In this document: positions 1,615 through 59,059 of the stretch, in pieces
How positions within the stretch are numbered: position 1 is the stretch's first letter
Layout: each line of letters begins with the position of its first letter
Source: Mercenaria mercenaria
Lineage: Eukaryota
DNA length: 64,000 nucleotides
Assembly (NCBI RefSeq): GCF_021730395.1
Contig: NC_069369.1
Coordinates: 29,869,250-29,933,249 of the forward strand
Direction: 5' to 3'
The notes under the pieces: generated by a model
The model's input: the letters and a program-made list of their open reading frames with translations, nothing else
Databases searched by the model: none
What the model was told of the DNA's origin: nothing
Translations under genes and position numbers: made by a program

Positions 1615-1735
1615 CTCATCAGGGTAGCATTTTTGAATACCATTCCAGAGGTTGTTCAATGCCCGTAGTCCGAACTGTTCCAGACCAGCAACAATAGGTT
1701 TACCATCCACAACACCACCCCAGTGACAGGGATAA
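1615..1735 (-). CDS. TEP1: TEP1-like exon 24 (NYPCHWGGVVDGKPIVAGLEQFGLRALNNLWNGIQKCYPDE)
   Basis: Acceptor ..atgttcttcag| and donor GATGAG|gtaaat. 1+40 codons. Confidence 0.65.
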
Positions 1736-1782
1736 CTGAAGAACATATTTCAGATACTTTTAACAGGTCTAAAATAAAACTG

Positions 1783-1936
1783 ATGCTAAATTTCTGTAAT
1801 GAACTTGTCCATCTTTCAATTTGGACAGTACCATTAACTGTTAAAAGGGGTGCTTACCAAAAAGATACTGACTGAATGGCGAACAGTGCAGATCATGATC
1901 AGACTGCACGGACGTGTCCAACATGTTAAGGTTTAA
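1783..1936 (+). mobile_element. Family A MITE copy with internal deletion (lacks the second palindrome arm)
   Basis: Shares gctaaatttctgtaatgaacttgtccatctttcaatttggacagtaccattaactgttaaaagg... with the other copies. Confidence 0.7.
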
Positions 1937-2143
1937 CATTTTCTGTAGATATCTCTTGTAAAAAACCAAAAACAATTGTGTATTAACAATCACAAAAGAA
2001 GGACATTATTAAGTAAGGAAAATTCTGTACTATTTGCTGATCTTTCTGAACAAGTGCTACAGCTCTCCATTATGTCTTGAAATTGTTTGTTGGACTACAC
2101 TGTTGATAAGCTCAAATTCAAGGCAAGTTTAAACGTAACATAC

Positions 2144-2257
2144 TTGTCAAAAACTTCAAGGCCACTAACGCGTATCCTGCGCTTCAACGCATCCATCTTT
2201 TCTTTATTTCTGTCACTTTCACACTCAAAGTCTTCACGGTATTTCTTTGGAATATCA
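2144..2257 (-). CDS. TEP1: TEP1-like exon 23 (SDIPKKYREDFECESDRNKEKMDALKRRIRVSGLEVFD)
   Basis: Acceptor ttacattctag| and donor TTTGACAA|gtatgt. 1+37 codons+2. Confidence 0.65.
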
Positions 2258-2825
2258 CTAGAATGTAAACATTTAAAACACTGTTAAATTATCTGTAAAA
2301 TTCACAGTCTATCTAGAAAGCCATTTCTCTAACATGAATTTTAACTATATACAGTCATTAATACTACAGAACAGTTTAACTTCTCACAAAAACGAATTTT
2401 TCAGTAAGTATAAACGATCCGCTGTTGAAAAACATAGGACTTGCAATGAAAAATTACAAAATTTAGGTCAATTAGCTCTTTTTTAATTGTGACCATAAGA
2501 AGCTGTTTTGGCAAAATCCACTAAATTTTGCGCCAAATTTTTTTAATAATTTCCCAGTAAACCTTTCATTTTCAATCACATATGATCCAAAGTATGACAA
2601 TTTAACAGCTCCATCAAGAAAAAAAAAATGTCACTTATTTCTAAGAAATTTTGAAGGGAGATTTAATAAAGTCAATTACAATTTTGTCACGACAGTGAAT
2701 TCTCATTTCACATCAATACTTTCTTTTCAGGCAAACTTTTCTTTTGTCATTCATGTAAATTTCAAGCTTTTTTTACTACTGAGCAAAATTACATAGTATG
2801 TATAAATAATATCTCCATCACAAAC

Positions 2826-3074
2826 CTTTCAAATGAATTGTCCCTGAACATGAAAAATGCCTTGTCCCTCATATCAGTTTTGTCTTTATGTCCGAGCGCT
2901 GCTGCCTGTATTTCAAGTTCTGTGACAGAAGCTCCTAGCGGATACTCCTTCACCCATTTGAACTCTGGAGTGTCTGGAACATCGTATTTATCTGGAACCC
3001 AGCCATACCGTTCTCCAAGAATTCCGACAAAGAACTGACATCTTGAAACTTCCGACAAGCACAACTCAAGAGTC
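2826..3074 (-). CDS. TEP1: TEP1-like exon 22, C-terminal half of DUF4062 (RTLELCLSEVSRCQFFVGILGERYGWVPDKYDVPDTPEFKWVKEYPLGASVTELEIQAAALGHKDKTDMRDKAFFMFRDNSFE)
   Basis: Acceptor ttctaaatttcag| and donor TTTGAAAG|gtttgt. Corresponds to ORF 2789..3109. LCL.E..RC..F.G.LG.RYGW is the DUF4062 signature. Confidence 0.8.
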
Positions 3075-3171
3075 CTGAAATTTAGAATAAATGTTACCAC
3101 TGTTTTCATTTTTTTTCACTGAAATCTGTATTTCATTTATTTTTACTGTAAAATTTAGAAAAACCAAGCTT

Positions 3172-3383
3172 GAACCCTTACACTGCTAAATTTCTATAAT
3201 GAACTTGTCCACCTTTCAATTTGTGCAGCATTATTAACTGTTGAAAGGGGCAATTACCAAAAAGATACTGACTGAATGGTGAACAGTGCAGATCATGATC
3301 AGACTGCATGGATGTGCAGGCTGATCATGATCTACACTGGTCGCAAAGGCAGACTCAGTCGTGTCCAACATGATAAAGGTTAA
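3172..3383 (+). mobile_element. Family A MITE copy, full length, in the TEP1 intron between the two DUF4062 exons
   Basis: More than 85% identical by eye to the 6851 copy. The ends are slightly mutated (tgaa|CCCTTAC...AAAGG|ttaa). Confidence 0.8.
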
Positions 3384-3632
3384 TGTATTTACACTGGCAT
3401 TTATATCATTACTGCAAGATATCAAACACACGAAATCTAATGTATCATCTCTATGGGATATGGAAATTATTTAGTTTAACAAATTTCAGGTCTTCATCCC
3501 AAAATTACTGGCCACTCTGCCAGGAGATCCTTTGATCAAATCCCACCCAGTCATGAACACGATCCTTTATTTGACAAAAGAACCTGCTTTACCCAGGAAG
3601 CATATTCAACAGTTCAACAATTCATAATTGAA

Positions 3633-3852
3633 CCACACCATGAGAAAACCAACAATTAGTGCATTTGCAACCAACATGGATCCAGACCATCCGTGCGGTC
3701 TGGTCAGGATCCATGCTGTTTGCTTTCAAAGCCAATTCAATTAGAGAAACCATTAGCAAACAGCATGGATCCTGACCAGAATGCGCGGATGCGCAGGCTG
3801 CTCTGGATCCATGCTGGTCCCAATGCACTATGTTGGTTTTCTCATGGTGCAG
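3633..3852. mobile_element. Family B hairpin MITE (about 220 bp): 23-bp terminal inverted repeats CCACACCATGAGAAAACCAACAA plus a central 50-bp palindrome ATGGATCCAGACCAG..CTGGTCAGGATCCAT
   Basis: Nearly the whole element is self-complementary. ORF 3622..3828 is an artefact. Confidence 0.75.
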
Positions 3853-3970
3853 CTCATTAATATAAGATTCGTATTTTGAATGAAATTAATTGGCACAATT
3901 TAATTTAATTCAATGGAAGGTGAGTCAACATTGCAGAAAACACAAAAAAGATATTACAATTCTATTATAC

Positions 3971-4147
3971 CTTGACTGTTTTGTCTCCTCCTCTGTGACT
4001 CCCCATCTCAAATCCACCTCATACACATTGATAAAATGTTTTTTTCCAAGGGCACGTAACTCTGGGAACACATATCGTGTCAGGAGATCTCTTTCCCCGT
4101 GCATGTCGCGGAATGTTGATGAAATAAAAACTCTGGCAGTTCTCCAG
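3971..4147 (-). CDS. TEP1: TEP1-like exon 21, N-terminal half of DUF4062 ([59 protein letters not shown])
   Basis: Acceptor tatttattaccag| and donor GTCAAG|gtataa. 1+58 codons+2. Motifs [12 protein letters not shown] and DLRWGVT are characteristic of DUF4062 (from memory). Confidence 0.8.
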
Positions 4148-6850: not shown

Positions 6851-7063
6851 TTAACCCTAACAATGCTAAATTTCTATAATAAACTGGACCATCTTTCAAT
6901 TCAGACAGTACCATTAGCTGTTAAAAGAGGTGCTTACCAAAAAGATACTGACTGAATGGCGAACAGTGCAGATCCTGATCAGACTGCATGGATGTGCAGG
7001 CTGATCATGATCTGCACTGGTCGCAAAGGCAGAATCAATCATGTCCAGCATGATAAGGGTTAA
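6851..7063 (+). mobile_element. piggyBac-type MITE (family A, about 213 bp), full-length copy: TTAA|CCCTAACA..internal 50-bp palindrome CAGATCATGATCAGACTGCATG/CATGCAGGCTGATCATGATCTG..ATAAGGG|TTAA
   Basis: Terminal inverted repeats CCCTTACC..GGTAAGGG flanked by TTAA on both sides. Multiple copies in both orientations. The embedded ORF 6914..7111 is an artefact. Confidence 0.8.
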
Positions 7064-8563: not shown

Positions 8564-8802
8564 AACCCTTACCCTGCTAAATTTCTATAATGAACTTGTC
8601 CATCTTTCAATTTGGATAGTACCATTAACTGTTAAAATGGGTGCATACCAAAAAGATACTAACTGAATGGCAAACAGTGCAGATCATGATCAGACTGCAT
8701 GGATGTACAGGCTGATCATGATCTACACTGATGTGCAGGCTGATCATGATCTACATTGGTCGCAAAGGCAGAATCAATCTTGTCCAGCATGATAAGGGTT
8801 AA
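8564..8802 (+). mobile_element. Family A MITE copy with an internal duplication of the second palindrome arm
   Basis: Ends aaaccCTTACCCTGC...GATAAGGG|ttaa. gctgatcatgatctaca occurs twice (8708, 8736). Confidence 0.8.
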
Positions 8803-8924: not shown

Positions 8925-9105
8925 CGTTCTAGGTTTTCCAAGACCTCTGGCTGCTGTACATGGTATCTTCATGTTAGGACCCACATCACACAGAATAATT
9001 GTCCGTCCTCTGATTGGCTGAACATTGTACACTGTTGCTAGTTTCACTGCAGTGTCCAGGGCCTTACGGTAACGATTTATTAAGTTTGAATCAAAAGGTG
9101 TCTCC
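8925..9105 (-). CDS. TEP1: TEP1-like exon 15, vWA-like part of TROVE (KETPFDSNLINRYRKALDTAVKLATVYNVQPIRGRTIILCDVGPNMKIPCTAARGLGKPRT)
   Basis: Acceptor tatttttccag| and donor AGAACG|gttagt. 1+60 codons. Corresponds to ORF 8862..9047. Confidence 0.7.
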
Positions 9106-9618
9106 CTGGAAAAATATGTCTATAGTTTAATTCACAGAGATTAAGTGTTACTTAAATAAATTCTTCAAAGGAAAAAGAATAAGTAAAAGCCATATATCAA
9201 TAAAGTATTCTACTTGATACTTGTTCAACTGAATATTAATCTTATTTTAGGCAAAAAATCTTTATGAAACATTTCAAAAAATGAAAAGTGAAACCATATG
9301 TAATAAAAAAAGTTTAAAAGCGTCAGTGCTAAGATTGGGCCCCGATGTAAGAGAAAATAGCGGTTAATGAGTTTTAAAATCCAAATAATGTCCTTTTAAC
9401 ATAAAGCGGAAAAACAGTGTTTTTGGTTTTCAAAAATTACCAATGTCAAGAATATTAACAAGAAGTATCTTTAAAAATGTTACACAGCCGCATAAGTCAA
9501 TGCACACTTTGCACTTGTACGTACGATCGGGTATTTATATTTTCATGTTTTTTATGTAGAACATATTTTACAGAACACATATTTTACATCATAATTATGT
9601 TGACCATTGTCTAGGAAA

Positions 9619-9648
9619 CTTTGACAAAAAAAAAAAAAAAAAAAAAAA
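9619..9648. repeat. Poly(A) tract of about 28 nt, followed by a (AAAGTGGGAGGGAG)x2 repeat
   Basis: Read directly in the sequence. Confidence 0.9.
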
Positions 9649-9730
9649 AGACTAAAAAGGAGGGTCCAAAAAGTGGGAGGGAGAGGCCAAAAAGTGGGAG
9701 GGAGTGGGGGGATGAAATGACCATTTTTGC

Positions 9731-11295
9731 TGAATAATCTCTCTACCATATCACTTCTGAATAATATCTCTACCAATCCCCTGCTACCATATCACTGTTG
9801 AATAATCCCTCTACCATAACACTGCTGAATAATTTCTCTACTATATCACTGTTGAATAATCCCTCTACCATATCACTGCTGAATAATCCCTCTAATATAT
9901 CACCGCTGAATAATCTCTCTACCATATCACTGCTGAATAATCCCTCTACTATATCACTGTTGAATAATCTCTCTACCATAACACTGCTGAATAATTTCTC
10001 TACTATATCACTGTTGAATAATCCCTCTACTATATCACTGTTGAATAATCTCTCTACCATATCACTGCTGAATAATTTTTCTACCATATCACTGCTGAAT
10101 AATCCCTCTACCATATCACTGCTGAATAATTTCTCTACTATATCACTGTTGAATAATCCCTCTACCATATCACTGCTGAATAATCCCTCTACTATATCAC
10201 CGCTGAATAATCTCTCTACCATATCACTGCTGAATAATCCCTCTACTATATCACTGTTGAATAATCTCTCTACCATAACACTGCTGAATAATTTCTCTAC
10301 TATATCACTGTTGAATAATCCCTCTACTATATCATTGTTGAATAATCTCTCTACCATATCACTGCTGAATAATTTCTCTACCATATCACTGCTGAATAAT
10401 CCCTCTACCATATCACTGCTGAATAATCCCTCTACTATATCACCGCTGAATAATCTCTCTACCATATCACTGTTGAATAATCCCTCTACTATATCACTGC
10501 TGAATAATCCCTCTACTATATCACTGTTGAATAATTTCTCTACTATATCACTGTTGAATAATCTCTCTACCATATCACTGTTGAATAATATCTCTACCAT
10601 ATCACTGCTGAATAATCCCTCTACTATATCACTGTTGAATAATCCCTCTACCTTATCACTGTTGAATAATCTCTCTACCATATCACTGCTGAACAATCTC
10701 TCTACCATATCACTGTTGAATAATCCCTCTACCATATCACTGTTGAATAATCCCTCTACTATATCACTGTTGAATAATCCCTCTACCTTATCACTGTTGA
10801 ATAATCTCTCTACCATATCACTGCTGAACAATCTCTCTGCCATATCACTGTTGAATAATCCCTCTACTATACCACTGCTGAATAATATCTCTACCATATC
10901 ACTGCTGAATAGTCCCTCTACCATATCACTGTTGAATAATCCCTCTACCATATCACTGCTGAATAATCTCTTTACCATATCACACTGTTGAATAATCCCT
11001 CTACCTTATCACTGCTGAATAATTCCTCTACCATATCTCTTCTGAATAGTCCCTCTACCATATCACTGTTGAATAATTCCCCTACCATACAACTGCTGAA
11101 TAGTCCCTCTACCATATCACTGTTGAATAATCCCCCTACCATACAACTGCTGAATAGTCCCTCTACCATATCACTGTTGAATAATCCCCCTACCATACAA
11201 CTGCTGAATAGTCCCTCTACCATATCACTGTTGAATAACCCCCCTACCATATAACTGCTGAATAGTCCCTCTACCTTATCGTTGCTAAACAACCC
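9731..11295. repeat. Intronic minisatellite, about 58 copies of a 27-bp unit (CTCTACCATATCACTGCTGAATAATCC with variants ttg/ctg and ccctct/ctctct/ttctct); distal part organised as 54-bp higher-order units
   Basis: Perfect 27-nt periodicity read directly in the sequence. It produces stop-free ORFs on both strands (9770..10978 minus, 9798..10991 plus) translating as NNPSTISLL and SDMVEGLFN repeats. Confidence 0.95.
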
Positions 11296-11363
11296 CTTTG
11301 ACATTTTGTCACAAGATGACTAATTAAAACACAAAACAATGACAATGTATAAATTTTACTCAC

Positions 11364-11541
11364 TTTGGTTTCTTATTCTTGTCCATTTTTCTTTGCTTTT
11401 TAATGATCCACCAGTTTTCTGCTGTCAATTTTTCAGTAGTCTTTCCTCCTGCTCCACCCCTACCTCTACCACGCCCTCTGCCAGTAGCTCCACCTCTAGG
11501 AGCACTTGTCTCTCTCACCGCCTCATCTACAATAGCTGCCT
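11364..11541 (-). CDS. TEP1: TEP1-like exon 14 with a second RG-rich low-complexity insert (QAAIVDEAVRETSAPRGGATGRGRGRGRGGAGGKTTEKLTAENWWIIKKQRKMDKNKKP)
   Basis: Acceptor ttttttttttacag| and donor CCAAA|gtgagt. The donor lies before the in-frame TGA that terminates ORF 11360..11743. 2+58 codons+2, in frame with both flanking exons. Confidence 0.65.
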
Positions 11542-11879
11542 CTGTAAAAAAAAATAAAACAAAAATCACCTTCTTTACCTGAATTGCATTTACGAGCCCT
11601 TTCCGGACATGGTAAAACTGTGGACATGTGTAAGAATTTTCACCAGTCACAGAGAATAATCTGTTTAATGCTCTACAATATATACATTCTTTTCTCATTA
11701 CTACCCCCAATAGCAAACACTTTCTGAATCTAAAAAAAATCAACTTCTAGAGATTTTTGAGCACACAGACTTTGATTTCTCAGATTTAGCTCTAACCTTT
11801 AAGTTGGTGTCACTGCAAAGGTTACATCCTTTTACAGATATTTTCTGATAATCCAGTCGAAATAATACATTTTCTCATA

Positions 11880-12060
11880 TCATGTCCTTAAAATGTTGGC
11901 CAAAAAAACTTTTCAATCATTATGTGACTTTTCATTTTCCAGCAAGGGAGCTACTGGTACCCTTTTTACATGTCTTTGGTATAACACAGCCAGGGATCGA
12001 ACCCACGACCTCCCACACTCAAAGCGGACACTCTGCCACTAGGCTATCAAGGTGGTTTCA
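11880..12060 (-). mobile_element. tRNA-derived SINE (minus orientation)
   Basis: Revcomp gives TAGCCTAGTGGCAGAGTG (box A) ...GGGTTCGATCCCTGG (box B). No pairing acceptor stem, so it is not a functional tRNA gene. Confidence 0.7.
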
Positions 12061-12309
12061 ATAAACTGACTAATGGGTGTTACATGTATTATGGTTATGT
12101 TTTATCAAATTAAAATGCTCATTCAACATGGTGTCTAACTTTCACAGAAATAATGTCAATAACTGACAGATATACAAACACAATGAAAGAACAACAACAA
12201 ATTGTGGAATTAGAAAAGTTGTTAAATATTTACTTCCTTCTTTATACAGTTACTGAGTTTTAGAATACTAAGAAATATGTGTTAGGTAAAATAGTCCTAA
12301 AAAACTTAC

Positions 12310-12400
12310 GAGAAGCGTCATAGTCTTTCTGTAGTTGTTCGAGGACTTCATATGCCGAGAAAAATCGGAATGGAAACTGTTTGCTGTTGATCACAGACCT
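12310..12400 (-). CDS. TEP1: TEP1-like exon 13, TROVE (RSVINSKQFPFRFFSAYEVLEQLQKDYDAS)
   Basis: Acceptor tgtttgcag| and donor CTTCTC|gtaagt. 30 codons+1. Confidence 0.7.
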
Positions 12401-12965
12401 CTGCAAACATGTTTTTGTTTGTACAATTCATTTACATGTATAAAAGAAATATTAGAATTCATAACTATCATTCATCACAAGTTTTTCCCAAAACTATAAA
12501 AAGTTACAATGTTTGAAACATTAAAACTAAAACATGTACAATATAAGAGGACTTTCCAAACAGATTAAAGGCAACATGCAATTTCTGGTCTTCTATAATC
12601 ATACATGGAATTCTGTTTCCACCATTAAATTTCTGACCTAATGGTGCTTAAAAACAAGTCATTTACATTTAATATGTCAAATTCTGAGTTTTCAGCTTTA
12701 ATGAATCATCAAAGTAAGAGCAGTGTTTTTAAAAATTACAATTTAAATTTTACATTTAGAAACACTTCAAATTTTTTCTTTTAAATTACATATTTTAACC
12801 CAGAAAACTTTTTTACATTTAATGAGAAAATTTCAGAGTAAAGTGCCAACAATTAAGTGTAAATGTTTGAGTTGATAAAATTTCCTGCTTCCATACTAAA
12901 ACAGTCATTTGTAGTTATGGGATCTTGTCCAGGCATACAAAATATTCAGGTAAACAATTTCATAC

Positions 12966-13075
12966 CTCATCTGTCAGTCTCCGAATGACTCCAGTGTGAT
13001 GTTTCGAGGAGATGCCTGCTTTAATCAGGTTCCTCAAGTTCCTTAACATAGCCATGAATGGTAGCTTCTTATGGT
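12966..13075 (-). CDS. TEP1: TEP1-like exon 12, TROVE (DHKKLPFMAMLRNLRNLIKAGISSKHHTGVIRRLTDE)
   Basis: Acceptor gttttcag| and donor GATGAG|gtatga. 2+36 codons. Confidence 0.7.
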
Positions 13076-13747
13076 CTGAAAACATTCATTATATATCCTT
13101 TAATACAGTTTAAAATCTTCCAGTGTTTGTTATAACCTAATATTATAAACCTGACTCGCCAGTCAATAGTCAAAACTATTGCCAAAGTTCTGAAAGACTG
13201 AGGGGAAATAAATGTTACTACTGACTGGCGAGTCATTCAATGTGTTTTGTTACATGACATCAGAAACTGACTTTCACATTTTTAAATTTTCTTTTTACTT
13301 TTTAACCAAGTAAACGTCTGTTGAAAAAAGACCAGTCATATAGCACAAACTATGGACTAGCAATTTATATAAACAGCCATGTAATAATGTACAATAAGAC
13401 ATCTCTATGAATAGATATAACTTCTTTAGTCAAGTGGTTATTCAGCTTATCTGCACAACTTTTATCTCACAGCTGCGGGTTTGAAAACCTACTTGAATGA
13501 AGAATTCTTTCATATGAGGAACCTATTTAATTGCCTAACAGAAGGTCAATGGCTCTGTTATATACCCATTAATGCCTGAAGTAAAAAGTCCACAAGGTAC
13601 AGGGTATGCCTTCGCTACTAAAGCTGCAAAGTTACCATAAGACCAAACAGTGTATATGTGAATTAAAACCTAACAGCAATATGAACACAGATTTCTCATT
13701 CAGACTTTCATGTATAAAGCACAAAAACACAAAATATTTGTGATTTG

Positions 13748-13895
13748 AGCCGCGCCATGAGAAAACCAACATAGTGGTTTTGCGACCAGCATGGATCCAG
13801 ACCAGCCTGCGCATCTGCGCAGTCTGGTCAGGATCCATGCTGTTCGCTAACAGTTTCTCTAATTGCAATACACTTCGAAAGCGAACAGCATGGCT
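13748..13895. mobile_element. Family B MITE, truncated, again followed by module C
   Basis: Same head. The overlapping ORFs 13632..14027 (minus) and 13774..14064 (plus) are artefacts of the palindrome. Confidence 0.7.
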
Positions 13896-13994
13896 CATTT
13901 GTGATTTTATTTCTAGTTGTTCTGGGTTTAGAGTCACCTCAACACAATTTAGGCTGTTTAGTGACTTTTCCAGCTTTTTATGGTTGAGGAACAG

Positions 13995-14170
13995 CCCAAT
14001 CGCCCCTCTGGGCATTATTTCGGTCATGAGCAGGAACCTGGGTAGAACAACTGCTCTTCAATAAGCCAGCAGGGTGGCTTTCTCATGCGAAAGTCTTCTA
14101 CACCTCAAGCGAGGTTCTGAACCCACAATGGTAACAGTGCAAGTGACTGTTTGTTGGGTACTGAGGCCTC
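13995..14170 (+). mobile_element. Module C copy
   Basis: See 4300-4545. Confidence 0.5.
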
Positions 14171-14874
14171 TCTTGTGATCTTAAAAGGAAAGGCAATGTT
14201 GTTTTTACGTTAATTCCGTCAGCTAGGAATTATTAAATCATTTAAAGAAGTGAAAGAATTTTCAAAATCGGCTTTAAAATGTGAAAGTTATGAGCGGTTG
14301 AATATTTGATTCCATGCCAACAGAAATCAAAATGGTGGATTTATTAAATTTCTATATACATATTTGAATTGTATTTTCTTATTTCTGTAAAGTAATTTCG
14401 CTACTGTTTCCAGCTATAATGAAAGAAATTACCATGTTTTACATCTTACACTCAAGAAACATATGAAATCTATCTACTGAAAAGAATTCAGCAGTGTGTA
14501 AATGACGACATAAACACACTAAAATGGCTGCCTCATAGCCATTTTCTTAAATTTAAAACTGTCATATCTTTTTCAATAGTGGTCCGATTTTAAAAATTCT
14601 TTCAGCGTTATGAAAGGCTTGAGGATGGCTCAAGCAAGTTCACTGGAAATAAAACTTCTTCTACAACACAGCAATTGTTAATCAAATAACTGTTACACAA
14701 AAAGGACCATAACTCAAATTATTCCTCATTAATGCCCTCTTCGAAAGAAACCCATTATTCAGTAAGCAAATGATTTTTAAGTTTTTAGCCTTTACTCTAA
14801 CCTGTTAGTATACAATTTATACCATCATTGCAACAGAAGTATGATTTAACAGACATTTTACTCTCACACCATAC

Positions 14875-15032
14875 CTAACAATTCTTGCCACGTAGAAGCC
14901 TTGTTCCCTTTAAGTGACACCTGTGTCTCCCATGTTTCAGGAACAGGAAGTTTCATCCTCTTTCCGGCACGCTCCTCCTCGTAGGTGCCTGGTAATCGAG
15001 ACCGGTAAAACTCATCCAGTGAACTTGGATAC
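14875..15032 (-). CDS. TEP1: TEP1-like exon 11, TROVE (KYPSSLDEFYRSRLPGTYEEERAGKRMKLPVPETWETQVSLKGNKASTWQELL)
   Basis: Acceptor ..tctacaag| and donor TTGTTAG|gtatgg. 1+52 codons+1. Corresponds to ORF 14864..15157. Confidence 0.7.
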
Positions 15033-15683
15033 CTTGTAGACAAATCAGAATTTAAATATAATCTGTACGGCCAAAACAAATGTTTAAAAGTAAAAGATAA
15101 AAGGAATTTTTCCCCCAAATTTATGTTTTTTGTTTTTTTTAAAATTATAATGAGCAAATTCTGGTGTTGAATGGGTTTTTGTAATGAAATAAATCAATCC
15201 TTCTATTCTGTGAATGATTTTAATGGCATTTCTGCGGCACAATTTTGCCCAGTCACCCTACCATGAACAGATGCCCAGTTATCATACAGCAAACGGAAGA
15301 AACTGTTGTTTAACCAAATCAATCTGCCGAACTTCTAAGTTCCTTCCACGAAGCATGGAAGATTAATGTATATCACTAAAATATGTACTGTATGCTTTGT
15401 TATATTAGTGCAGCACTATTTAAGCGCTACCCCAAAATTTAGTATTTTTTTTACCTATTTGTGCAGTTTTATTTAGCATGGCACTGATGCAGAATTTGTA
15501 TTTTGCACACACTGAAGGTGCAGAATAAACAGAAATTCAGATTAAAACTGACATCAATGCCATATATTTGCAGTTAATATCTATGTGCAATGTGCTGAAA
15601 TCGCCCTGAGGCTACTCCAGGACAAGGCAGTGTCATGAACAAGCTTGGTAGTGACTAGCACTAGCTGCACAACAATACTCTCT

Positions 15684-15894
15684 AACCCTTACCATGCCGG
15701 ACACAATTGGTTTTGCCTTTGCGACCGGTGTAGATCATGATCAGCCTGCACATCTGTGCAGTCTGATCAAGATCTGCACTGTTCGCTATTCAGGCAGTAT
15801 CTTTTTGGTAAGCACCCCTTTTAACAGTTAATGGTACTGTCCAAATTGGAAGATGGACAAGTTCATTATAGAAATTCAGCAAGGTAAGGGCTAA
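15684..15894 (-). mobile_element. Family A MITE copy, minus orientation, flanked by CTAA on both sides
   Basis: ctaa|CCCTTACCATGCC...GGTAAGGG|ctaa. The identical variant tetranucleotide at both flanks supports a target-site duplication. Confidence 0.8.
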
Positions 15895-15982
15895 TACAGT
15901 ATGATACAGAAGTAACCATAAAGTACCAGAAAGAACATAAGTACAAGAAAGAATACTATATGCTATAGTGAACCATACTCAC

Positions 15983-16134
15983 TTTTTCCCAATGAGACAC
16001 ATAACATGCTCTACAGGTTCTGTTATATGAAGTTTTCTGATCAGTTGTTTTATCGAAAAACTCATTTTCTGCAGCTGTTCCGGACTCTCTCCATCATCAA
16101 ACATAACACTATCCAGACCTTTCTCTGCTTGATT
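15983..16134 (-). CDS. TEP1: TEP1-like exon 10, TROVE (NQAEKGLDSVMFDDGESPEQLQKMSFSIKQLIRKLHITEPVEHVMCLIGK)
   Basis: Acceptor catttcag| and donor GGGAAAAA|gtgagt. 50 codons+2. Confidence 0.7.
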
Positions 16135-16508
16135 CTGAAATGAAAAATGTAAATACTGAAGTTAATGGTAATTGAGAGAACTACACGTAAGCTTTTTATA
16201 AATTTGACATAAAACAGACACGTCTTAGAAAAATCTTGTCCAAAAATATTTACATATTCATTAAGAGAGAGTTTAAACAATACTATTAATTTAAAAAAAA
16301 ATAAAATTCAGCTTTCCGCAAATATCGCAGTTCTTATATATGTAACATAACAATAAAAATAATCGTTAAGATACTGAAATTCAGCAAAAGTGATTTTTGT
16401 AAGAAAAAAAAAGAAAACTGCATTGATTTATACATGTACAAATAAAAGACACCCCCACAATGCAGCTGGAATCGTTATCAAAACCCAAATATGAGCAAAG
16501 CAAAACAC

Positions 16509-16759
16509 CTGTCTGTGAGTTTCAGCTTCTTCATCCGAGTCAATTTCTGACCCAGAGCTTGAGCTGTCGGAGTCCAACATTGAGCCACGACCCCTGCCAG
16601 CGGCTGCTCCATCTCTTCCTCTAGTAGCTGCAGCTCCACGACCCCTACCTCTCCCTCCACGCCCTCTACCCCCTCTCGTGGAGACTCCTCCCTTTGCTTC
16701 TTCGGCTTTCCTCAACTTCTTCTTTTTCTTCTTTTTGGAACTCTCCTTGTTATATTTGG
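16509..16759 (-). CDS. TEP1: TEP1-like exon 9: ..AKYNKESS then a poly-Lys, RGG/RG-rich and acidic Ser-rich low-complexity insert (KKKKKKKLRKAEEAKGGVSTRGGRGRGGRGRGRG...SDSSSSGSEIDSDEEAETHRQ)
   Basis: Acceptor ttgtttttctctccag| and donor ACAGACAG|gtgttt. 2+83 codons. Corresponds to ORF 16428..16781. Confidence 0.75.
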
Positions 16760-16986
16760 CTGGAGAGAAAAACAACAACATTTATTGTTAAATATTCAGA
16801 AACTGGTAAATATTCATGGTAGTCATTTGCGAGTTGCACTATTTGTAAATAATACAATTATAATAACAACAGTAATAAAGCCATCTGGAACACCATCTGG
16901 TCTTTACTATAATGTTACCAGAGAAACCTGCATGTTATAGAAGTATCAAATATGGACATCTACAAAAGAAACTACTGGGATTTCAT

Positions 16987-17194
16987 TTAACCCTTATCAT
17001 GCTGGACAGGATTGGGTCTGCCTTTGCGACCAGTGTAGATCATGATCAGCCTGCACATCCATACAGTCTGATCATGATCTACACTGTTCGCCATTCCAAC
17101 AGTATCTTTTTGGTTAGCACCCCTTAGTTAATGGTACTGTCCAAATTGAAAGATGGATAAGTTCATTATAAAATTTTAGCAGGGTAAGGGTTAA
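16987..17194 (-). mobile_element. Family A MITE copy, minus orientation, TTAA-flanked
   Basis: ttaa|CCCTTATCATGCTGG...GGGTAAGGG|ttaa. ORF 16912..17127 is an artefact. Confidence 0.8.
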
Positions 17195-17270
17195 TATTGT
17201 GGGCATAACATTTTGTGGTCTTCAAAAAAAGGCTATTTTGTGGGGACATGAACTGATGGATTTCAAATGT

Positions 17271-17483
17271 TTAACTTTTACCCTGCTAAATTTCTAAAAT
17301 GAACTGGTCCATCATTCAATTTCAGCAGTACCATTTATTATTTGAAGGGATGTTCACTGAAAATTTACTAACTGAATAGCAACCAGTGCAGACCAAGCTT
17401 AGCCTGCATGAATGTGCAGGCTGATTTTGGTCTGAACTGGTCGCAAAGGCAGAATCACTAGCGGCCAGCAGGCTAAAGGTTAA
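17271..17483 (+). mobile_element. Divergent family A-related MITE (palindrome arms altered to cagaccaagcttagcctgcatg / cgcaggctgattttggtctg)
   Basis: Same architecture and end motifs (..ccctgctaaatttctaaaatgaac...ctaaagg|ttaa) with about 70% identity. Confidence 0.6.
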
Positions 17484-17542
17484 CAGAAAACAAAACTGAA
17501 ATGCCAAATAAGCCAGACAATCTGTTTATGATAACTTCTTAC

Positions 17543-17639
17543 CAAGCTGATACTTGTCAAAGTCAGGAAACTTGGCTACCATGGCACGTCTCAAAGCTGA
17601 AGGCAAGGAACCAAGAGGTAATGTCTTTTCTGGGAATGC
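17543..17639 (-). CDS. TEP1: TEP1-like exon 8, TROVE (AFPEKTLPLGSLPSALRRAMVAKFPDFDKYQL)
   Basis: Acceptor ttattttag| and donor CAGCTTG|gtaaga. 32 codons+1. The DFDKYQL.KYN motif is completed across the junction to the next exon. Confidence 0.8.
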
Positions 17640-18366
17640 CTAAAATAAAATACAAAATTGAGAAAGACATAATCAGCTGTTACATATATATCTGAAATTC
17701 AAATGCAATTGGTCTAGCAGTAAAATCAGTTCATAACTGTGTTGACCTGGTAAAGTTGAAGATGCTGGTTTGTCAACTTTGTTTTATAAATGACAGTGTT
17801 GTACCCTCCATTCTATACTGAATTATAAGCTCTTCATACTTTTGACTAAATGAAACATTAACCATCATATGACAGTAAAAACTCATTACTGACTCCAATG
17901 GTGATCATTCATCTGTAGTTAAATGTTGACACAGTCTAAATTGTGCGTATTTGTTAATTTTTTGAAAATGAGGTAAATTAATCCAAATATAGCATTCTTA
18001 TCTATGAAATGTGTTGCTAAGAAAAGAAAAATTATTGTGGATCATTCATGCTAATGCAGTACAACATTCAAGGTTTGCTGTGGTGTTGTGCAATCAATTA
18101 GACAGCCAAAAGTTCAAGCCCTAGCGCAGACCTCTACTCCTCCACAAGTGGTATAAGATTTCAGAGACAAGGATCTAAGTGTGACTAATCCCACCTTCTT
18201 AGATTTAGATGTGTGTCAATCCACAAAAACTAAATTACTAATTAACAAATACAATACCCATTTATTTCATCTTCCAGGAAATTAGCCGCTTCAGGAAAAC
18301 GAAGAAATATTACATAATTTTAAAGAATATTACAAGAATTATAAAGTTAAACATTAAACCACTTAC

Positions 18367-18528
18367 AGAATAGATCTCGGCAACTTCTATCCAATCAGAT
18401 GGCAGGGCTATAGATGCACTGAAGTATTTCTTCAGGTAAGGTCTGCAGGCTGGCATGTGTGATGCCAGAGCCAACATAAAGTTTGCTGTAGTTCTGATGT
18501 TCAACTGTTTTCTTGTATACAGTGCAAC
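18367..18528 (-). CDS. TEP1: TEP1-like exon 7, TROVE (VALYTRKQLNIRTTANFMLALASHMPACRPYLKKYFSASIALPSDWIEVAEIYS)
   Basis: Acceptor ttgtttag| and donor TATTCT|gtaagt. 54 codons. Strong similarity to human TEP1 HLHTAANFLLALACHLPQCRPHLAHVFPLALALPRDWLTVASTYS (from memory). Confidence 0.85.
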
Positions 18529-18599
18529 CTAAACAATCAACGGTACCATATCATAGTGATTATCTAGAATCTTGTATTTGATAATCCTTCTTAAACACA

Positions 18600-18900
18600 T
18601 CATCTAGTGGGTACATCAGTGTGTTTTGGTGACCGGCATGGTATGGATTTTAGCCATGCCGTAAATAAAGGAGGCCCAACATAATCCGGGAACTCAGAGA
18701 AAAAGCCAAAAGGCACTAAAGAATAAACGCATATAAACCGCATTTTTACAATTTAACTTGGGGATTTGTAAAGCCTAAAGGTAAGCGCGGCAATGCGGTA
18801 CCATGGCCGTACAAGCGGGGTAGATTGGAGGCCCGAGTTTCACTACCTAGGGACGACGAGAGTTTTTGGTCTTAAACTAGAGGTATGGGATTTAAATGTC
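18600..18900. other. GC-rich structured island inside a TEP1 intron (hairpin GGCATGG-tatggattttag-CCATGCC; GC-rich stem region ending in TTTTT)
   Basis: Local GC content is far above the surroundings. A minus-strand stretch TACGGCCATggTACC weakly resembles a 5S rRNA 5' end. No confident assignment. Confidence 0.2.
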
Positions 18901-19536
18901 TACAAATAAGTTCCTGAAGTACTCTGAACAAGATTTTTACAAAAAGTTCACACCTAAATGCTTAGTATTATACCTCTAACAGAAGCTACTGTGAGAAAAA
19001 TAATTAATTAATCATGACTGGAAACAGTATTCCTTTTTTCAAACAATTGGTAAGACAGCTTTTACATTTCAAAAACTTTCAATGAAAAGTAGACCATATG
19101 CAATACCTTGACTTGGTCCTTTGGGATCATGGGGAACATTTATTTTTTACTATAATAGAATTCCCCTTAAGCCAGTGCTAGGGGGAGCACGAGAGGTGTT
19201 GCACATTTTATCACATGTCATGAACAGACTCAATCAAACCGAGACTGCTATTATATTGTTTGGTTGCACTTTATGCTTCCAAAGAATCTTCTCACAGAGT
19301 TTATTGGCTGTGAGCTTTTTGATAAGAAATCTAAAGCAAAGCTTTCAAAAGCATTTTGTAATCTATAGTTAAACAGTTTTTTCAGCTCATTTTTTTCTAA
19401 AACAAATAACACTTAAAATCGACACAAAAACTTCCAGTTGTATTAGACAAGGAATTTAAATCTGTAAGGCTTCTCAACAAAAAAAAAAACAACACAGGTC
19501 TAAGCAGACCAAATGTGTGACATATTATTGTCATAC

Positions 19537-19671
19537 CTTGAGAACAAACTCCGGATCATAGCAGATCACCTTCTGAGCCATTGTTACAAGAGCTACCCGT
19601 GTAGGATCCGTGCCGAGACGGAAATCTGGCTGACATATCAGTGAGCCACTCACAGCATTCACTAGGGCAAA
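19537..19671 (-). CDS. TEP1: TEP1-like exon 6, start of TROVE domain (FALVNAVSGSLICQPDFRLGTDPTRVALVTMAQKVICYDPEFVLK)
   Basis: Acceptor ttctttcag| and donor CTCAAG|gtatga. 45 codons, phase 0/0. Resembles human TEP1 ...AARVALHTMARDAVCADPHFAL... (recalled from memory). Confidence 0.8.
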
Positions 19672-21795: not shown

Positions 21796-22239
21796 CTTTG
21801 CCCATCTTTTTCTCTCCTTTCCCCTTCTTTGGTTTTGCCTCTTCTGACTTTGAAGAGGTCACACTTGTACTTCTCAGTAAATCACTTTTCAATCCAGATG
21901 TCAAACCCATTGACAATGATCCTCCTGTTTCCTTAAATTTTGTTTCAATCAAGGTGGAGCTTAGAGAAGATGTGGGTGGAGCTTTGGATAAGAAGGCTGA
22001 GCCACTTGTTAATGATGACCCACCTCCTGTTAATTTCTTAGAGACAGTGGTAAGTTTGGGTGACCCCAGTAATTCTGATCTGTGACTGGCCTGACTGCTC
22101 CCACCACTGCTGACCTGCGACCTTGTCCGTTTCCCTGACAACATGTCACTAAGGTCTCTGGACGGCTTGCTCAACAATGATGATGACAGTGAAGATTGAG
22201 TAATAGAGCCTCCCTCCACTGGCGATTTCTTCAAAAGCC
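21796..22239 (-). CDS. TEP1: TEP1-like exon 4, long Ser-rich low-complexity segment (LLKKSPVEGGSITQSS...KPKKGKGEKKMGK); corresponds to ORF 21764..22234
   Basis: Acceptor ..ctccaaaatcag| and donor GGCAAAG|gtaaac. 444 nt gives 2+147 codons+1, in frame. Confidence 0.6.
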
Positions 22240-22556
22240 CTGATTTTGGAGATTATAAAGAATAGTAATATCATTCAAACACTTTCATTAGCAAAGATTA
22301 ACGAAACTGCTGCCAAAGAAATTAGAAAGCTTCCTTTGTCACAATATGTTTTCCCCAAAATTACTTAAAAATATCACCAAGAAAACAAGGTTTCATATTA
22401 TACATTGCACCATGAATTATCTTTAAAAATAAATAAAAAAATTCCAGAAAAGCAAAGAAACCATGCATATATATCACATAAAAAACTAAGGCCACTTCTT
22501 CAAGTTCTTGGAGGAAGCCACAAAACCATAATAATTTTAATTGTTATTCTTTTCAA

Positions 22557-22779
22557 TTTAACCCTTAGCATGCTGGAACAATTGGTTCTGCCTTTGCAAC
22601 CAGTGTAGATCATGATAAGCCTGCACATCTATCACATCCGTGCAGTCTGATTATGATCTACACTTTTCGCTATTCAGCCAGTATCTTTTCTGGTAAGCAC
22701 CCATTTTAACAGTCAATGGTACTGTCCAAACTGGGAGATGGACAAGTTCATTATAGAAATTTAGCAGGGTAAGGGTTAA
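22557..22779 (-). mobile_element. Family A MITE copy, minus orientation, TTAA-flanked, carrying a 10-bp internal insertion
   Basis: ttaa|CCCTTAGCATGCTGG...GGGTAAGGG|ttaa. Confidence 0.8.
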
Positions 22780-22822
22780 CATCATTTACTTTCAAATTTG
22801 AATGTTCAAATTGTGATAATAC

Positions 22823-58199: not shown

Positions 58200-58790
58200 G
58201 TCATGGCTAGGGTCTCCTCGGGAACAAACACACAGCCACCTAGTTCGTCATCAAATCATGCTGTCCAGTCACCTTCTGCTCCTGACCACTTGACTACTTC
58301 CTCGGATGATCAGCCGTCCATCTCACTATCCCGCCAACCAGCACGGTCGCCTTCTTTACAGCCTCAACTGGCTAGTCAGGCGCCCTCCTCAACACCCCAT
58401 CAGACAGACCAGCAGCCATTTTCACTACCCCATCAGCCAGAACAGGAGTCGTCTTCACTACCCCATCAACCAGACCAGTCACCTTCGCCACCGTTTCATC
58501 ATGCAGACCAGACTCTTTCTTCATCGCTTCATCATGCAGACCAGACGCCTTCTTCACCGCTTCATCATGCTGGCCGACCGTCTTCGTCACCCCTTCATCA
58601 AGTTGACCAGCCGCCTTCTTTACCGCTTCATCAAGTTGACCAGCCGCCTTCTTCACCGCTTCATCAAGTTGACCAGCCACCTTCTTCACCGCTTCAACAT
58701 GCTGACCAGCCGCCTTCTTCACCGCATCATCCTGCTGACCAGTCACGAAATTCTCCACCTCATCAACTGCAGCAGGAGCAGCAAAGGTAA
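58200..58790 (+). CDS. Plus-strand gene exon, probably terminal: Pro/Ser/Gln/His-rich with about nine tandem 13-aa repeats PLHQVDQPPSSPL (39-nt DNA period 58480-58760), stop TAA at 58788-58790. An alternative donor CAAAG|gtaaaa sits at 58786/58787
   Basis: Acceptor catttttacag|. ORF 58203..58790. No stops for 196 codons. Codon-level repeat with synonymous and non-synonymous variation. Confidence 0.6.
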   Translation, partial: VMARVSSGTNTQPPSSSSNHAVQSPSAPDHLTTSSDDQPSISLSRQPARSPSLQPQLASQAPSSTPHQTDQQPFSLPHQPEQESSSLPHQPDQSPSPPFHHADQTLSSSLHHADQTPSSPLHHAGRPSSSPLHQVDQPPSLPLHQVDQPPSSPLHQVDQPPSSPLQHADQPPSSPHHPADQSRNSPPHQLQQEQQR

Positions 58791-59059
58791 AACACATGCA
58801 TTTAATTATTATATATTCATTTTTGTCTCTGCTTAATGTTATTCGAACCTGAAATGCTAATAGATAAAGGATAATTGTTTGTTTAGAGGGAACATAGAAT
58901 AGATCTAGATCTTGGCGTATATATCACTGAGAAGTGTGGACATTTAAAAAAAGTTCACGAGCGCGTAGGTGAGATATATGTATTCCATATTCACTCAAAA
59001 CAAACACATTTTCTTTTTAGCTTTTCTGATAGCTCGATGTCCGTCGTCCGTCGTCTGTC

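Follow-up and report, generated by a model that had tools for sequence, protein, structure and literature searches.

RG-rich tracts at two variable basic sites of the TROVE module in a TEP1 gene of the bivalve Mercenaria mercenaria

Introduction

TEP1 (telomerase protein component 1) is a poorly understood RNA-binding subunit that is common to vaults and telomerase, and we know of no structure of its TROVE module with RNA and of no publication on the internal loops of that module. This study was concerned with a TEP1 gene on the minus strand of a 64,000-nucleotide stretch of the genome of Mercenaria mercenaria (contig NC_069369.1, positions 29,869,250 to 29,933,249, here called the window), and in particular with two low-complexity tracts rich in arginine-glycine (RG) dipeptides, which are encoded by exon 9 (site 1) and exon 14 (site 2).

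Telomerase in the nucleus and vaults in the cytoplasm have TEP1 in common (PMC7916137). Mammalian TEP1 uses its TROVE region to bind both vault RNA and telomerase RNA, and removal of the vWA domain affects the binding of vault RNA (PMC7916137). Vertebrate TEP1 consists of TEP1_N, TROVE, DUF5920, DUF4062, NACHT and WD40. Ro60 and Rsr (PDB 1YVP, 2I91, 9NEN, 2NVO and 9L5Y) have a ring and vWA fold, and a review describes the Ro60 mutant H187S as lacking Y RNA binding (PMC11277228). The glycine/arginine-rich (GAR) and RGG-box proteins (nucleolin, fibrillarin, GAR1, hnRNP U and FMRP) carry disordered RG/RGG repeats of the di-RGG or tri-RG class, and in nucleolin-type proteins these repeats are joined to acidic-Ser and K-rich tracts. 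Established functions of GAR/RGG repeats include the binding of RNA, participation in condensates and arginine methylation (PMC9957100), and the definitions of the di-RGG, tri-RG and tri-RGG classes (the Thandapani classes) used here were taken from the same paper.

The Mercenaria gene has the same TROVE-DUF5920-DUF4062 order as vertebrate TEP1, and both sites are present and basic in vertebrates. However, the vertebrate sites are rich in R, K, P and L without RG repeats or an acidic-Ser tract, and vertebrate site 1 is shorter (60 versus 108 amino acids (aa)). The resemblance to the GAR/RGG-box proteins is one of composition and not of homology. The Mercenaria repeats are short (9 and 5 RG), include no tri-RGG, and lie in internal loops of a folded module rather than in terminal domains. 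A literature search found no mention of TEP1, TROVE and RGG together, and the RG feature of the TEP1 loops appears to be undescribed. It is an ordinary, modest elaboration within the known TEP1 family and not a unique insertion or a new kind of system. We consider it somewhat probable that the tracts are disordered basic arms which assist RNA binding, located in two segments of the TROVE module that are variable and basic throughout the family. This function is inferred from composition, position and the conservation of charge.

Gene model and family membership

The gene on the minus strand of the window is a TEP1 orthologue of the bivalve type. Eighteen exons between 19671 and 1615, rebuilt from stop-free frames and splice sites and each bounded by AG and GT, join into one open frame of 905 aa. 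Exon numbers are those of this reconstructed model, in which exon 1 is not placed, and the main coordinates are given in Table 1. An additional exon of 81 nucleotides (nt) at 7839-7759 (DPKARYTKLQADLPMSVLYDNLRDRVQ), on the minus strand between the exons at 8391-8227 and 7288-7146, was recovered by comparison with Solemya and Saccostrea. Pfam TROVE (PF05731) matched residues 21-478 of the model as a single match (E=2.4e-104) that includes both tracts. PF19334 (DUF5920, the vWA region) followed at residues 574-661 and PF13271 (DUF4062) at residues 690-798, which is the domain order of gorilla TEP1. Beyond exon 23 (1615) the gene continues past the low-coordinate edge of the window, so NACHT and WD40 are expected outside the 64 kb.

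The best database matches carry the annotation telomerase protein component 1. Mya arenaria supplied the closest one, with 64% identity across 905 aa, and Solemya, Mizuhopecten and Saccostrea came next. No TEP1 protein or transcript of the same species was present in the databases searched. Full-length mollusc TEP1 proteins came from an exhaustive representative search, and a word-indexed database gave TEP1 fragments below about 1600 aa. Over the part encoded in the window, the bivalve proteins (Mya WAR22045.1, Saccostrea "telomerase component p80-like", Mizuhopecten XP_021378535.1 and Solemya ScPMuIL_001568) are 55-64% identical to the Mercenaria protein. The TROVE exons are colinear with TEP1 of Solemya, Saccostrea and Elysia by tblastn.

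In a separate observation, the DUF4062-coding exons (1615-4147, minus strand) gave a profile match to a 220-residue fragment of human TEP1 (PDB 11gz_A, E=3e-89). The same part showed a weak likeness to a bacterial "KpSwz TIR/DUF4062" chain (10wc_A, E=0.15).

Table 1. Positions of the TEP1 exons and of the blocks of sites 1 and 2, numbered from the first nucleotide of the window
Feature	Position	Strand	Basis or property
Exons 2-4 (23733-23533, 22933-22823, 22239-21796)	21796..23733	minus	AG/GT, in frame; 201+111+444 nt
TROVE-module exons 6-15	8925..19671	minus	All junctions AG/GT, in frame; Pfam TROVE; tblastn colinearity
Exon 6	19671-19537	minus	
Exon 7	18528-18367	minus	
Exon 8	17639-17543	minus	
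Exon 9, low-complexity part of site 1, following the invariant K-Y of AKYN	16509..16759	minus	Direct translation
K-rich block of site 1, KESSKKKKKKKLRKAEEAK, directly after (A)KYN	16692..16748	minus	19 aa, net charge +8
RGG/RG block of site 1, GGVSTRGGRGRGGRGRGRGAAATRGRDGAAAGRGRGSM	16578..16691	minus	38 aa, 9 RG including 2 RGG, net charge +9
Acidic-Ser block of site 1, LDSDSSSSGSEIDSDEEAETHRQ, running on into exon 10	16509..16577	minus	Net charge -11 over 46 aa
Exon 10, last part of the acidic segment DSVMFDDGESPEQLQK, followed by conserved helix FSIKQLIRKLHITEP with near-invariant His	15983..16134	minus	
Exon 11	15032-14875	minus	
Exon 12	13075-12966	minus	
Exon 13, FPFRFFSAYEVLEQLQKDYDAS, last conserved ring helix ahead of site 2	12310..12400	minus	
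Exon 14, site 2 segment, ring-to-vWA linker	11364..11541	minus	Direct translation
RG block of site 2, RGGATGRGRGRGRGGAGG	11444..11497	minus	tri-RG
NWW motif of site 2	11408..11416	minus	(N/M/E)WW across molluscs
K-rich tail of site 2, IIKKQRKMDKNKKPK	11364..11407	minus	
Exon 15	9105-8925	minus	

The two tracts

Exon 8 ends with the codons for FPDFDKYQL and one further base (phase 1), which completes the Ala codon of AKYN. Exon 9 then reads (A)KYNKESSKKKKKKKLRKAEEAKGGVSTRGGRGRGGRGRGRGAAATRGRDGAAAGRGRGSMLDSDSSSSGSEIDSDEEAETHRQ from 16759 to 16509. Site 1 thus consists of a K-rich, an RGG/RG and an acidic-Ser block, and at 108 aa it is about 48 aa longer than in gorilla TEP1. The di-RGG was found at model residues 160-167 and a tri-RG at residues 160-171. 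Site 1 also contains four S/T-x-x-D/E sites (S191, S200, S202 and S206), three of them inside the 46-aa acidic block, and such a cluster in an acidic run is of the CK2 type.

Exon 14 reads (Q)AAIVDEAVRETSAPRGGATGRGRGRGRGGAGGKTTEKLTAENWWIIKKQRKMDKNKKPK from 11541 to 11364. Its parts are, in order, (Q)AAIVDEAVRETSAP, RGGATGRGRGRGRGGAGG, KTTEKLTAE, NWW and IIKKQRKMDKNKKPK. There are five RG dipeptides at site 2, with the tri-RG at model residues 401-414, and the net charge is +5 for the RG part and +5 for the NWW and K-rich part. The WW motif is preceded by different residues in other molluscs, as in ENWW of Solemya, DNWW of Saccostrea, EMWW of Mizuhopecten and TEWW of Elysia. Site 2 is 87 aa long both in Mercenaria and in gorilla TEP1, so the two differ in composition and not by an insertion. 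In the structure, this site links the helical ring to the vWA domain and is not embedded in the ring.

The RG dipeptides are clustered well beyond what the composition of the protein would give. The 905-aa model contains 17 RG dipeptides with up to 9 in a 40-aa window, and 20,000 composition-preserving shuffles reached maxima of 15 in total and 5 per 40-aa window. Low-entropy windows were located at model residues 127-194 and 394-408. A regular-expression search of the model detected no tri-RGG. The codons of the tracts are mixed for Arg (AGA, CGT and AGG), Gly (all four), Lys and Ser, and Tandem Repeats Finder detected no array in exon 9 or exon 14. Thus, the tracts are not DNA microsatellites, and the repetition exists at the protein level.

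These results bear on several statements of the initial annotation, which had been made from the letters of the window. The poly-K, RGG and acidic-Ser tract that it placed in exon 9 and the second RG tract that it placed in exon 14 were both borne out by translation, both lie in frame, and its classification of them as RGG/RG boxes agrees with the published definitions of di-RGG and tri-RG. The (RGG/RG)x8 run assigned to exon 9 was present, but the count was 9 RG, 2 of them RGG. The tracts had also been placed within the TROVE domain, which holds for the Pfam envelope and does not hold for site 2 with respect to the ring.

Splicing of exons 9 and 14

Exon 9 has the acceptor ctctccAG/CC and the donor CAG/GTGTTT, and exon 14 has the acceptor ttttaCAG/AG and the donor AA/GTGAGT, with an in-frame TGA inside the donor. 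Both exons had been described as spliced at strong sites with the TGA bypassed. The sites and the bypass were confirmed, but the exon 9 donor is a moderate match to the consensus. The lengths of exon 9 (251 nt) and exon 14 (178 nt) are not divisible by three, so skipping either of them gives a frameshift. Each of the two exons has a single internal GT dinucleotide that is in frame. That of exon 9 stands in a poor context, and that of exon 14 comes after the RG run.

Comparison with the genomic locus of Saccostrea was informative for these exons. Residues 426-508 and 673-729 of the Saccostrea protein are each encoded by a single exon. The exon 8/9 junction (G/CA AAA TAT) and the exon 9 donor (...CGT CAG/gt) have the same position and phase as in the window, and so do the exon 14 acceptor (in phase) and donor (AAA CCG AA/gt). 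This identity of intron positions and phases indicates that the low-complexity sequence is integral to orthologous exons and is not an exonised intron or transposon. The junction that follows exon 14, KNKKPK/ETPFD, corresponds to KKKPKETAFD in Saccostrea and GKTKETLYD in Solemya. We take exons 9 and 14 to be constitutive coding exons.

These data also address whether the tracts could be an artefact of the gene model, that is, whether the low-complexity parts lie outside the mature mRNA through other exon boundaries or intron read-through. The exon model was drawn from genomic sequence and orthologue comparison alone, the donor of exon 9 is moderate, and exon 14 has a weak in-frame internal donor (exon end 11412) whose junction is paralleled in the annotation of Mya. 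Yet skipping would break the frame, neither RG run would be lost through a plausible in-frame internal donor (the one in exon 14 costs the K-rich tail only), the introns of Saccostrea are in identical places, and five mollusc orthologues, including the RefSeq protein XP_021378535.1, are colinear through both tracts. An artefact is therefore very improbable.

The internal donor of exon 14 is worth describing in its own right. It reads TG/GTGGAT and would give ...TAENW/ETPFD, with loss of W44 and the K-rich tail (16 residues). Exactly the corresponding junction, ...TADNW/ETPFD, is annotated in Mya arenaria (WAR22045.1). This donor could represent alternative splicing, or in Mya an annotation choice. 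A gene on the plus strand beneath exon 9 was also considered and rejected, since the antisense frames there are all of low complexity.

Variation among TEP1 homologues

Both sites were extracted from about 150-170 TEP1/p80 proteins between conserved flanks, which were YQLAKY to ..LIRxLH for site 1 and FPFRF.. to RYRxALDTAV for site 2. Lengths at site 1 ran from 10 to 240 aa with a median of about 46 aa, and the median K+R fraction there was 0.27, while site 2 had a median length of 64 aa (range 20-124 aa) and a median K+R fraction of 0.20. A basic run stood directly after AKYN in every TEP1 compared, from Acanthamoeba to gorilla. A tri-RG was present in 5 of 154 homologues for site 1 and in 15 of 170 for site 2.

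The layouts of both sites are shared with other bivalves. At site 1, all three blocks (K-rich, RGG and acidic-Ser) were found in the Mercenaria gene, in Mya arenaria (RGGGRGRGRGASRGSRGGRGASRGARGG...SMLDSDTSSSESDSESDSDSDEE) and in Saccostrea cucullata. Partial layouts were found in Solemya (a single RGRG, which is weak), in Mizuhopecten (poly-K and acidic-Ser without RG) and in Elysia (K-rich and acidic-Ser), so that the acidic-Ser block is kept in Mya, Saccostrea, Solemya, Mizuhopecten and Elysia. At site 2, the full layout of RG run, (N/M/E)WW, K-rich tail and KET.(F/Y)D was found in the Mercenaria gene, Solemya, Saccostrea and Mizuhopecten. In Elysia, site 2 has RG runs and EWW, where the gene model stops. 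The bivalves differ in the number of RG units, which falls to none at site 2 of Mya and at site 1 of Mizuhopecten. Outside the molluscs, a long RGG run was found at site 1 in the bdelloid rotifer Adineta, a long RG run at site 2 in Branchiostoma belcheri, and RG runs at site 2 in proteins derived from transcripts of Apiculatamorpha and the amoebozoan Gocevia.

This comparison indicates that the RG feature is old within bivalves, variable in detail and recurrent in other lineages, and that it is not lineage-specific. The alignment to mollusc orthologues that the initial annotation had proposed thus placed tracts at both sites in several bivalves. Two of its statements did not survive the comparison. 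The tracts had been called insertions, but both sites are variable and K/R-rich in all TEP1/p80 homologues compared. They had also been called a lineage-specific elaboration, which is contradicted by the shared bivalve layouts and by the runs in Branchiostoma, Adineta, Gocevia and Apiculatamorpha.

The same variation bears on the main rival explanation, which is that the tracts are neutral low-complexity filler. According to this explanation, the loops are permissive, RG, poly-K and acidic-Ser arose from slippage and compositional drift, and any role is limited to spacing and perhaps to net positive charge. In its favour, lengths and composition vary widely at both sites, close relatives have lost RG or lack it, disorder is predicted for the tracts, and site 1 accommodates a galectin-like domain of 220-240 aa in Brachionus-type TEP1. 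Against this, the order of the blocks and short motifs (SMLDSD..., DDGESPEQLQKMSF, NWW and KPKET.FD) are kept across bivalve orders, both sites stay basic from amoebae to mammals, the codons are mixed without a DNA tandem repeat, and RG runs reappear at the same two sites in unrelated lineages. Neutral filler is a possibility to be taken seriously, but in our judgement a rather doubtful one.

Two further observations were made on individual homologues. In the TEP1 of rotifers (Brachionus plicatilis P0169, and also P0172, P0174 and P0101), site 1 holds an insert of 220-240 aa, and one of these monogonont inserts passes the threshold of the Pfam galectin family PF00337 (28.6 bits versus 22.1). 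A folded galectin-like insert at this position suggests that site 1 is a general insertion hotspot. In the Branchiostoma belcheri TEP1 model (P0002), the segments TLKQLIRKLHITQPVEHVMALIGK and FPFRFFSAYEVLNQLEKDLTAAE are each present twice, which is most likely an assembly or gene-model artefact, but the long RG run of this protein at site 2 is clear all the same.

Predicted structure and position relative to the RNA surface

AlphaFold2 was run on residues 1-940 of the Saccostrea orthologue, with 69 aligned sequences, as a proxy for the Mercenaria protein. In this model, 417 residues had a predicted local distance difference test score (pLDDT) of at least 90. Values below 50 were obtained for the Ser-rich N-terminus (1-274), for the RGG and acidic tract of site 1 (459-499 and 503-514) and for the RG run of site 2 (698-708). 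The poly-K after AKYN (432-452) was modelled as a continuation of the helix (pLDDT 78-88), and the NWW motif with the K-rich tail (713-725) as a helix with pLDDT of about 65. The RG and acidic tracts are thus predicted, by this proxy, to be intrinsically disordered. A disorder check had been suggested by the initial annotation. A Foldseek comparison of the Saccostrea model with the PDB recovered Ro60, Rsr and phage Ro60 (E from 5e-13 to 8e-9; template modelling (TM) score on the target 0.57-0.71).

At the level of sequence, the similarity to Ro60 is marginal. A single-protein sequence search of the PDB did not reach Ro60, and BLASTP with the short Ro60 segment gave no match. Ro60 residues 166-191 of human and Xenopus were compared with TEP1. 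A weak colinear profile alignment (E=0.004; domain score 0.1 bits) placed Ro60 K170-Y171 on the invariant K133-Y134 of TEP1. In a local alignment, the His-containing segment of Ro60 fell best on TEP1 FSIKQLIRKLH of exon 10, in which the His is near-invariant, but the shuffle p was 0.24 and the K-Y half was placed elsewhere. On this weakly supported mapping, K-Y and His motifs lie beside the site in both proteins, and site 1 would take the place of a turn of 4-5 residues in Ro60 (Q173-G176) between K170/Y171 and H187. The linker of site 2 is also longer than its counterpart, at about 107 residues in Mercenaria TEP1 versus about 30 between the ring and vWA domain of phage Ro60 (9kop/9L5Y). The effect of H187S in Ro60, together with the RNA binding of the TROVE and vWA regions of mammalian TEP1, makes it plausible that both loops are near bound RNA.

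Possible function of the tracts

If the tracts are basic arms that assist RNA binding, the features above could be combined as follows. Site 1 is a surface loop of charge blocks, in which a K-rich extension of the helix (+8) is followed by the RGG/RG run (+9) and by a tract of the acidic phospho-Ser type (-11). Site 2 is made of an RG run, the conserved NWW motif and a K-rich tail. As flexible basic arms beside the RNA surface of the ring, both may add non-specific contacts, electrostatic or through arginine, to the small structured RNA carried by TEP1, be it vault RNA or telomerase RNA. The acidic-Ser block, with SDSSSSGSEIDSDEE as its candidate phospho-serine stretch, may fold back on the basic blocks as a competitor tunable by phosphorylation. 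The arginines of the RG runs are predicted to be likely methylation substrates, and the K-rich parts may serve also as nuclear-localisation signals. RG would then be one of several interchangeable solutions by which lineages keep both sites basic.

Several points weigh against this reading. First, Mya has no RG at site 2, Mizuhopecten has none at site 1, and RG is absent at both sites in the Octopus fragment, sea urchin, crinoid, tunicate, priapulid and vertebrates. As RG has been gained and lost among lineages, RG itself is not essential, and this repeated gain and loss fits neutral filler. Secondly, the structure model is that of the Saccostrea orthologue and not of the Mercenaria protein. 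Third, the residue mapping between Ro60 and TEP1 comes from the weak alignments given above. Lastly, there is the genomic basis of the exon model, already noted.

A stronger form of the basic-arm reading is a charge switch, acquired in bivalve TEP1 and repeatedly in other eukaryotes, in which methylatable RG arms and the acidic phospho-serine tract would gate the loading or release of vault or telomerase RNA, or drive condensation of the ribonucleoprotein particles. We regard such a switch as unlikely. If true, it would be a regulatory layer on vault and telomerase particles that has not previously been described and that has no counterpart in vertebrate TEP1.

The tracts could also serve mainly in localisation or protein interaction and not in contacts to RNA. 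K-rich segments would act as nuclear or nucleolar localisation signals and methylated RG as a docking site for Tudor-domain proteins, on the pattern of nucleolin-, fibrillarin- or Sm-type proteins, which together would steer TEP1 between the nucleolus or Cajal bodies, for telomerase, and the cytoplasm, for vaults. Nucleolar GAR proteins have the same combination of K-rich, RG/RGG and acidic-Ser tracts, methylation and a part in condensates are known for GAR domains (PMC9957100), and TEP1 belongs to particles of both nucleus and cytoplasm (PMC7916137). However, vertebrate TEP1 reaches both locations without RG runs, and the tracts are within an RNA-binding module and not at a terminus. We consider this explanation improbable as the reason for the tracts, although it is compatible with arms that contact RNA and the two are not mutually exclusive.

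N-terminal region and other features of the window

Exons 2-4 encode 252 aa that are rich in Ser and Leu, with SSLLS motifs. No exon 1 bearing the start codon was identified. The 352-aa N-terminal model gave no Pfam match at E<=1 and no TEP1_N, whereas the N-terminus of vertebrate TEP1 has four TEP1_N repeats of 30 aa, as in gorilla. By tblastn, N-terminal residues 20-159 of the Saccostrea protein and 18-163 of the Elysia protein match the region of exons 2-4, and a Ser/Leu-rich N-terminus is common to Saccostrea, Elysia and Solemya. The initial annotation had estimated that exons 2-4 add about 250 aa of Ser-rich sequence not present in vertebrate TEP1, which agrees with these results, although the feature is mollusc-wide. 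As mollusc orthologues also lack TEP1_N, this domain marks vertebrate TEP1 and not the whole family. The lengths of exons 2-4 are all multiples of three, so each could be skipped in frame and the N-terminal region could vary by alternative splicing.

Intron 14-15 contains a minisatellite at 9779-11280 with a 27-bp unit, 55.5 copies and 87% match, and with a strong C bias of the plus strand (GC skew -0.475). Read from the minus strand, it has open frames of 411 aa and 115 aa (SDMVEGLFN repeats), in which no genuine Pfam domain was recognised. The 411-aa frame was rejected as coding because orthologues have nothing that corresponds to it and the junction of exons 14 and 15 is conserved. The introns also hold a dispersed repeat of about 210 bp at 15683-15896, with at least five more copies at 3175-3382, 6851-7062, 8566-8728, 16988-17196 and 22559-22779 (86-91% identity), and a second repeat is common to 13746-13896 and 3708-3856. 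Both are intronic interspersed elements.

Outside the TEP1 gene, an open frame of 183 aa at 58375-58923 (minus strand) contains about ten amphipathic repeats of 11 residues (AVKKAAGQLDE-like). Its match to apolipophorin-III is below threshold (27.1 bits, with the cut-off at 36.3). The frame probably belongs, as an exon, to another gene that lies about 35 kb upstream of TEP1 exon 2. Scans of the 64-kb window for tRNA and Rfam families found nothing.

Significance for TEP1

The two basic loops of TEP1, which repeatedly gain RG and of which site 1 is flanked by motifs that align with K170/Y171 and H187 of Ro60, are candidate auxiliary RNA contact sites in this subunit. For annotation, the low-complexity exons should stay in mollusc TEP1 gene models.

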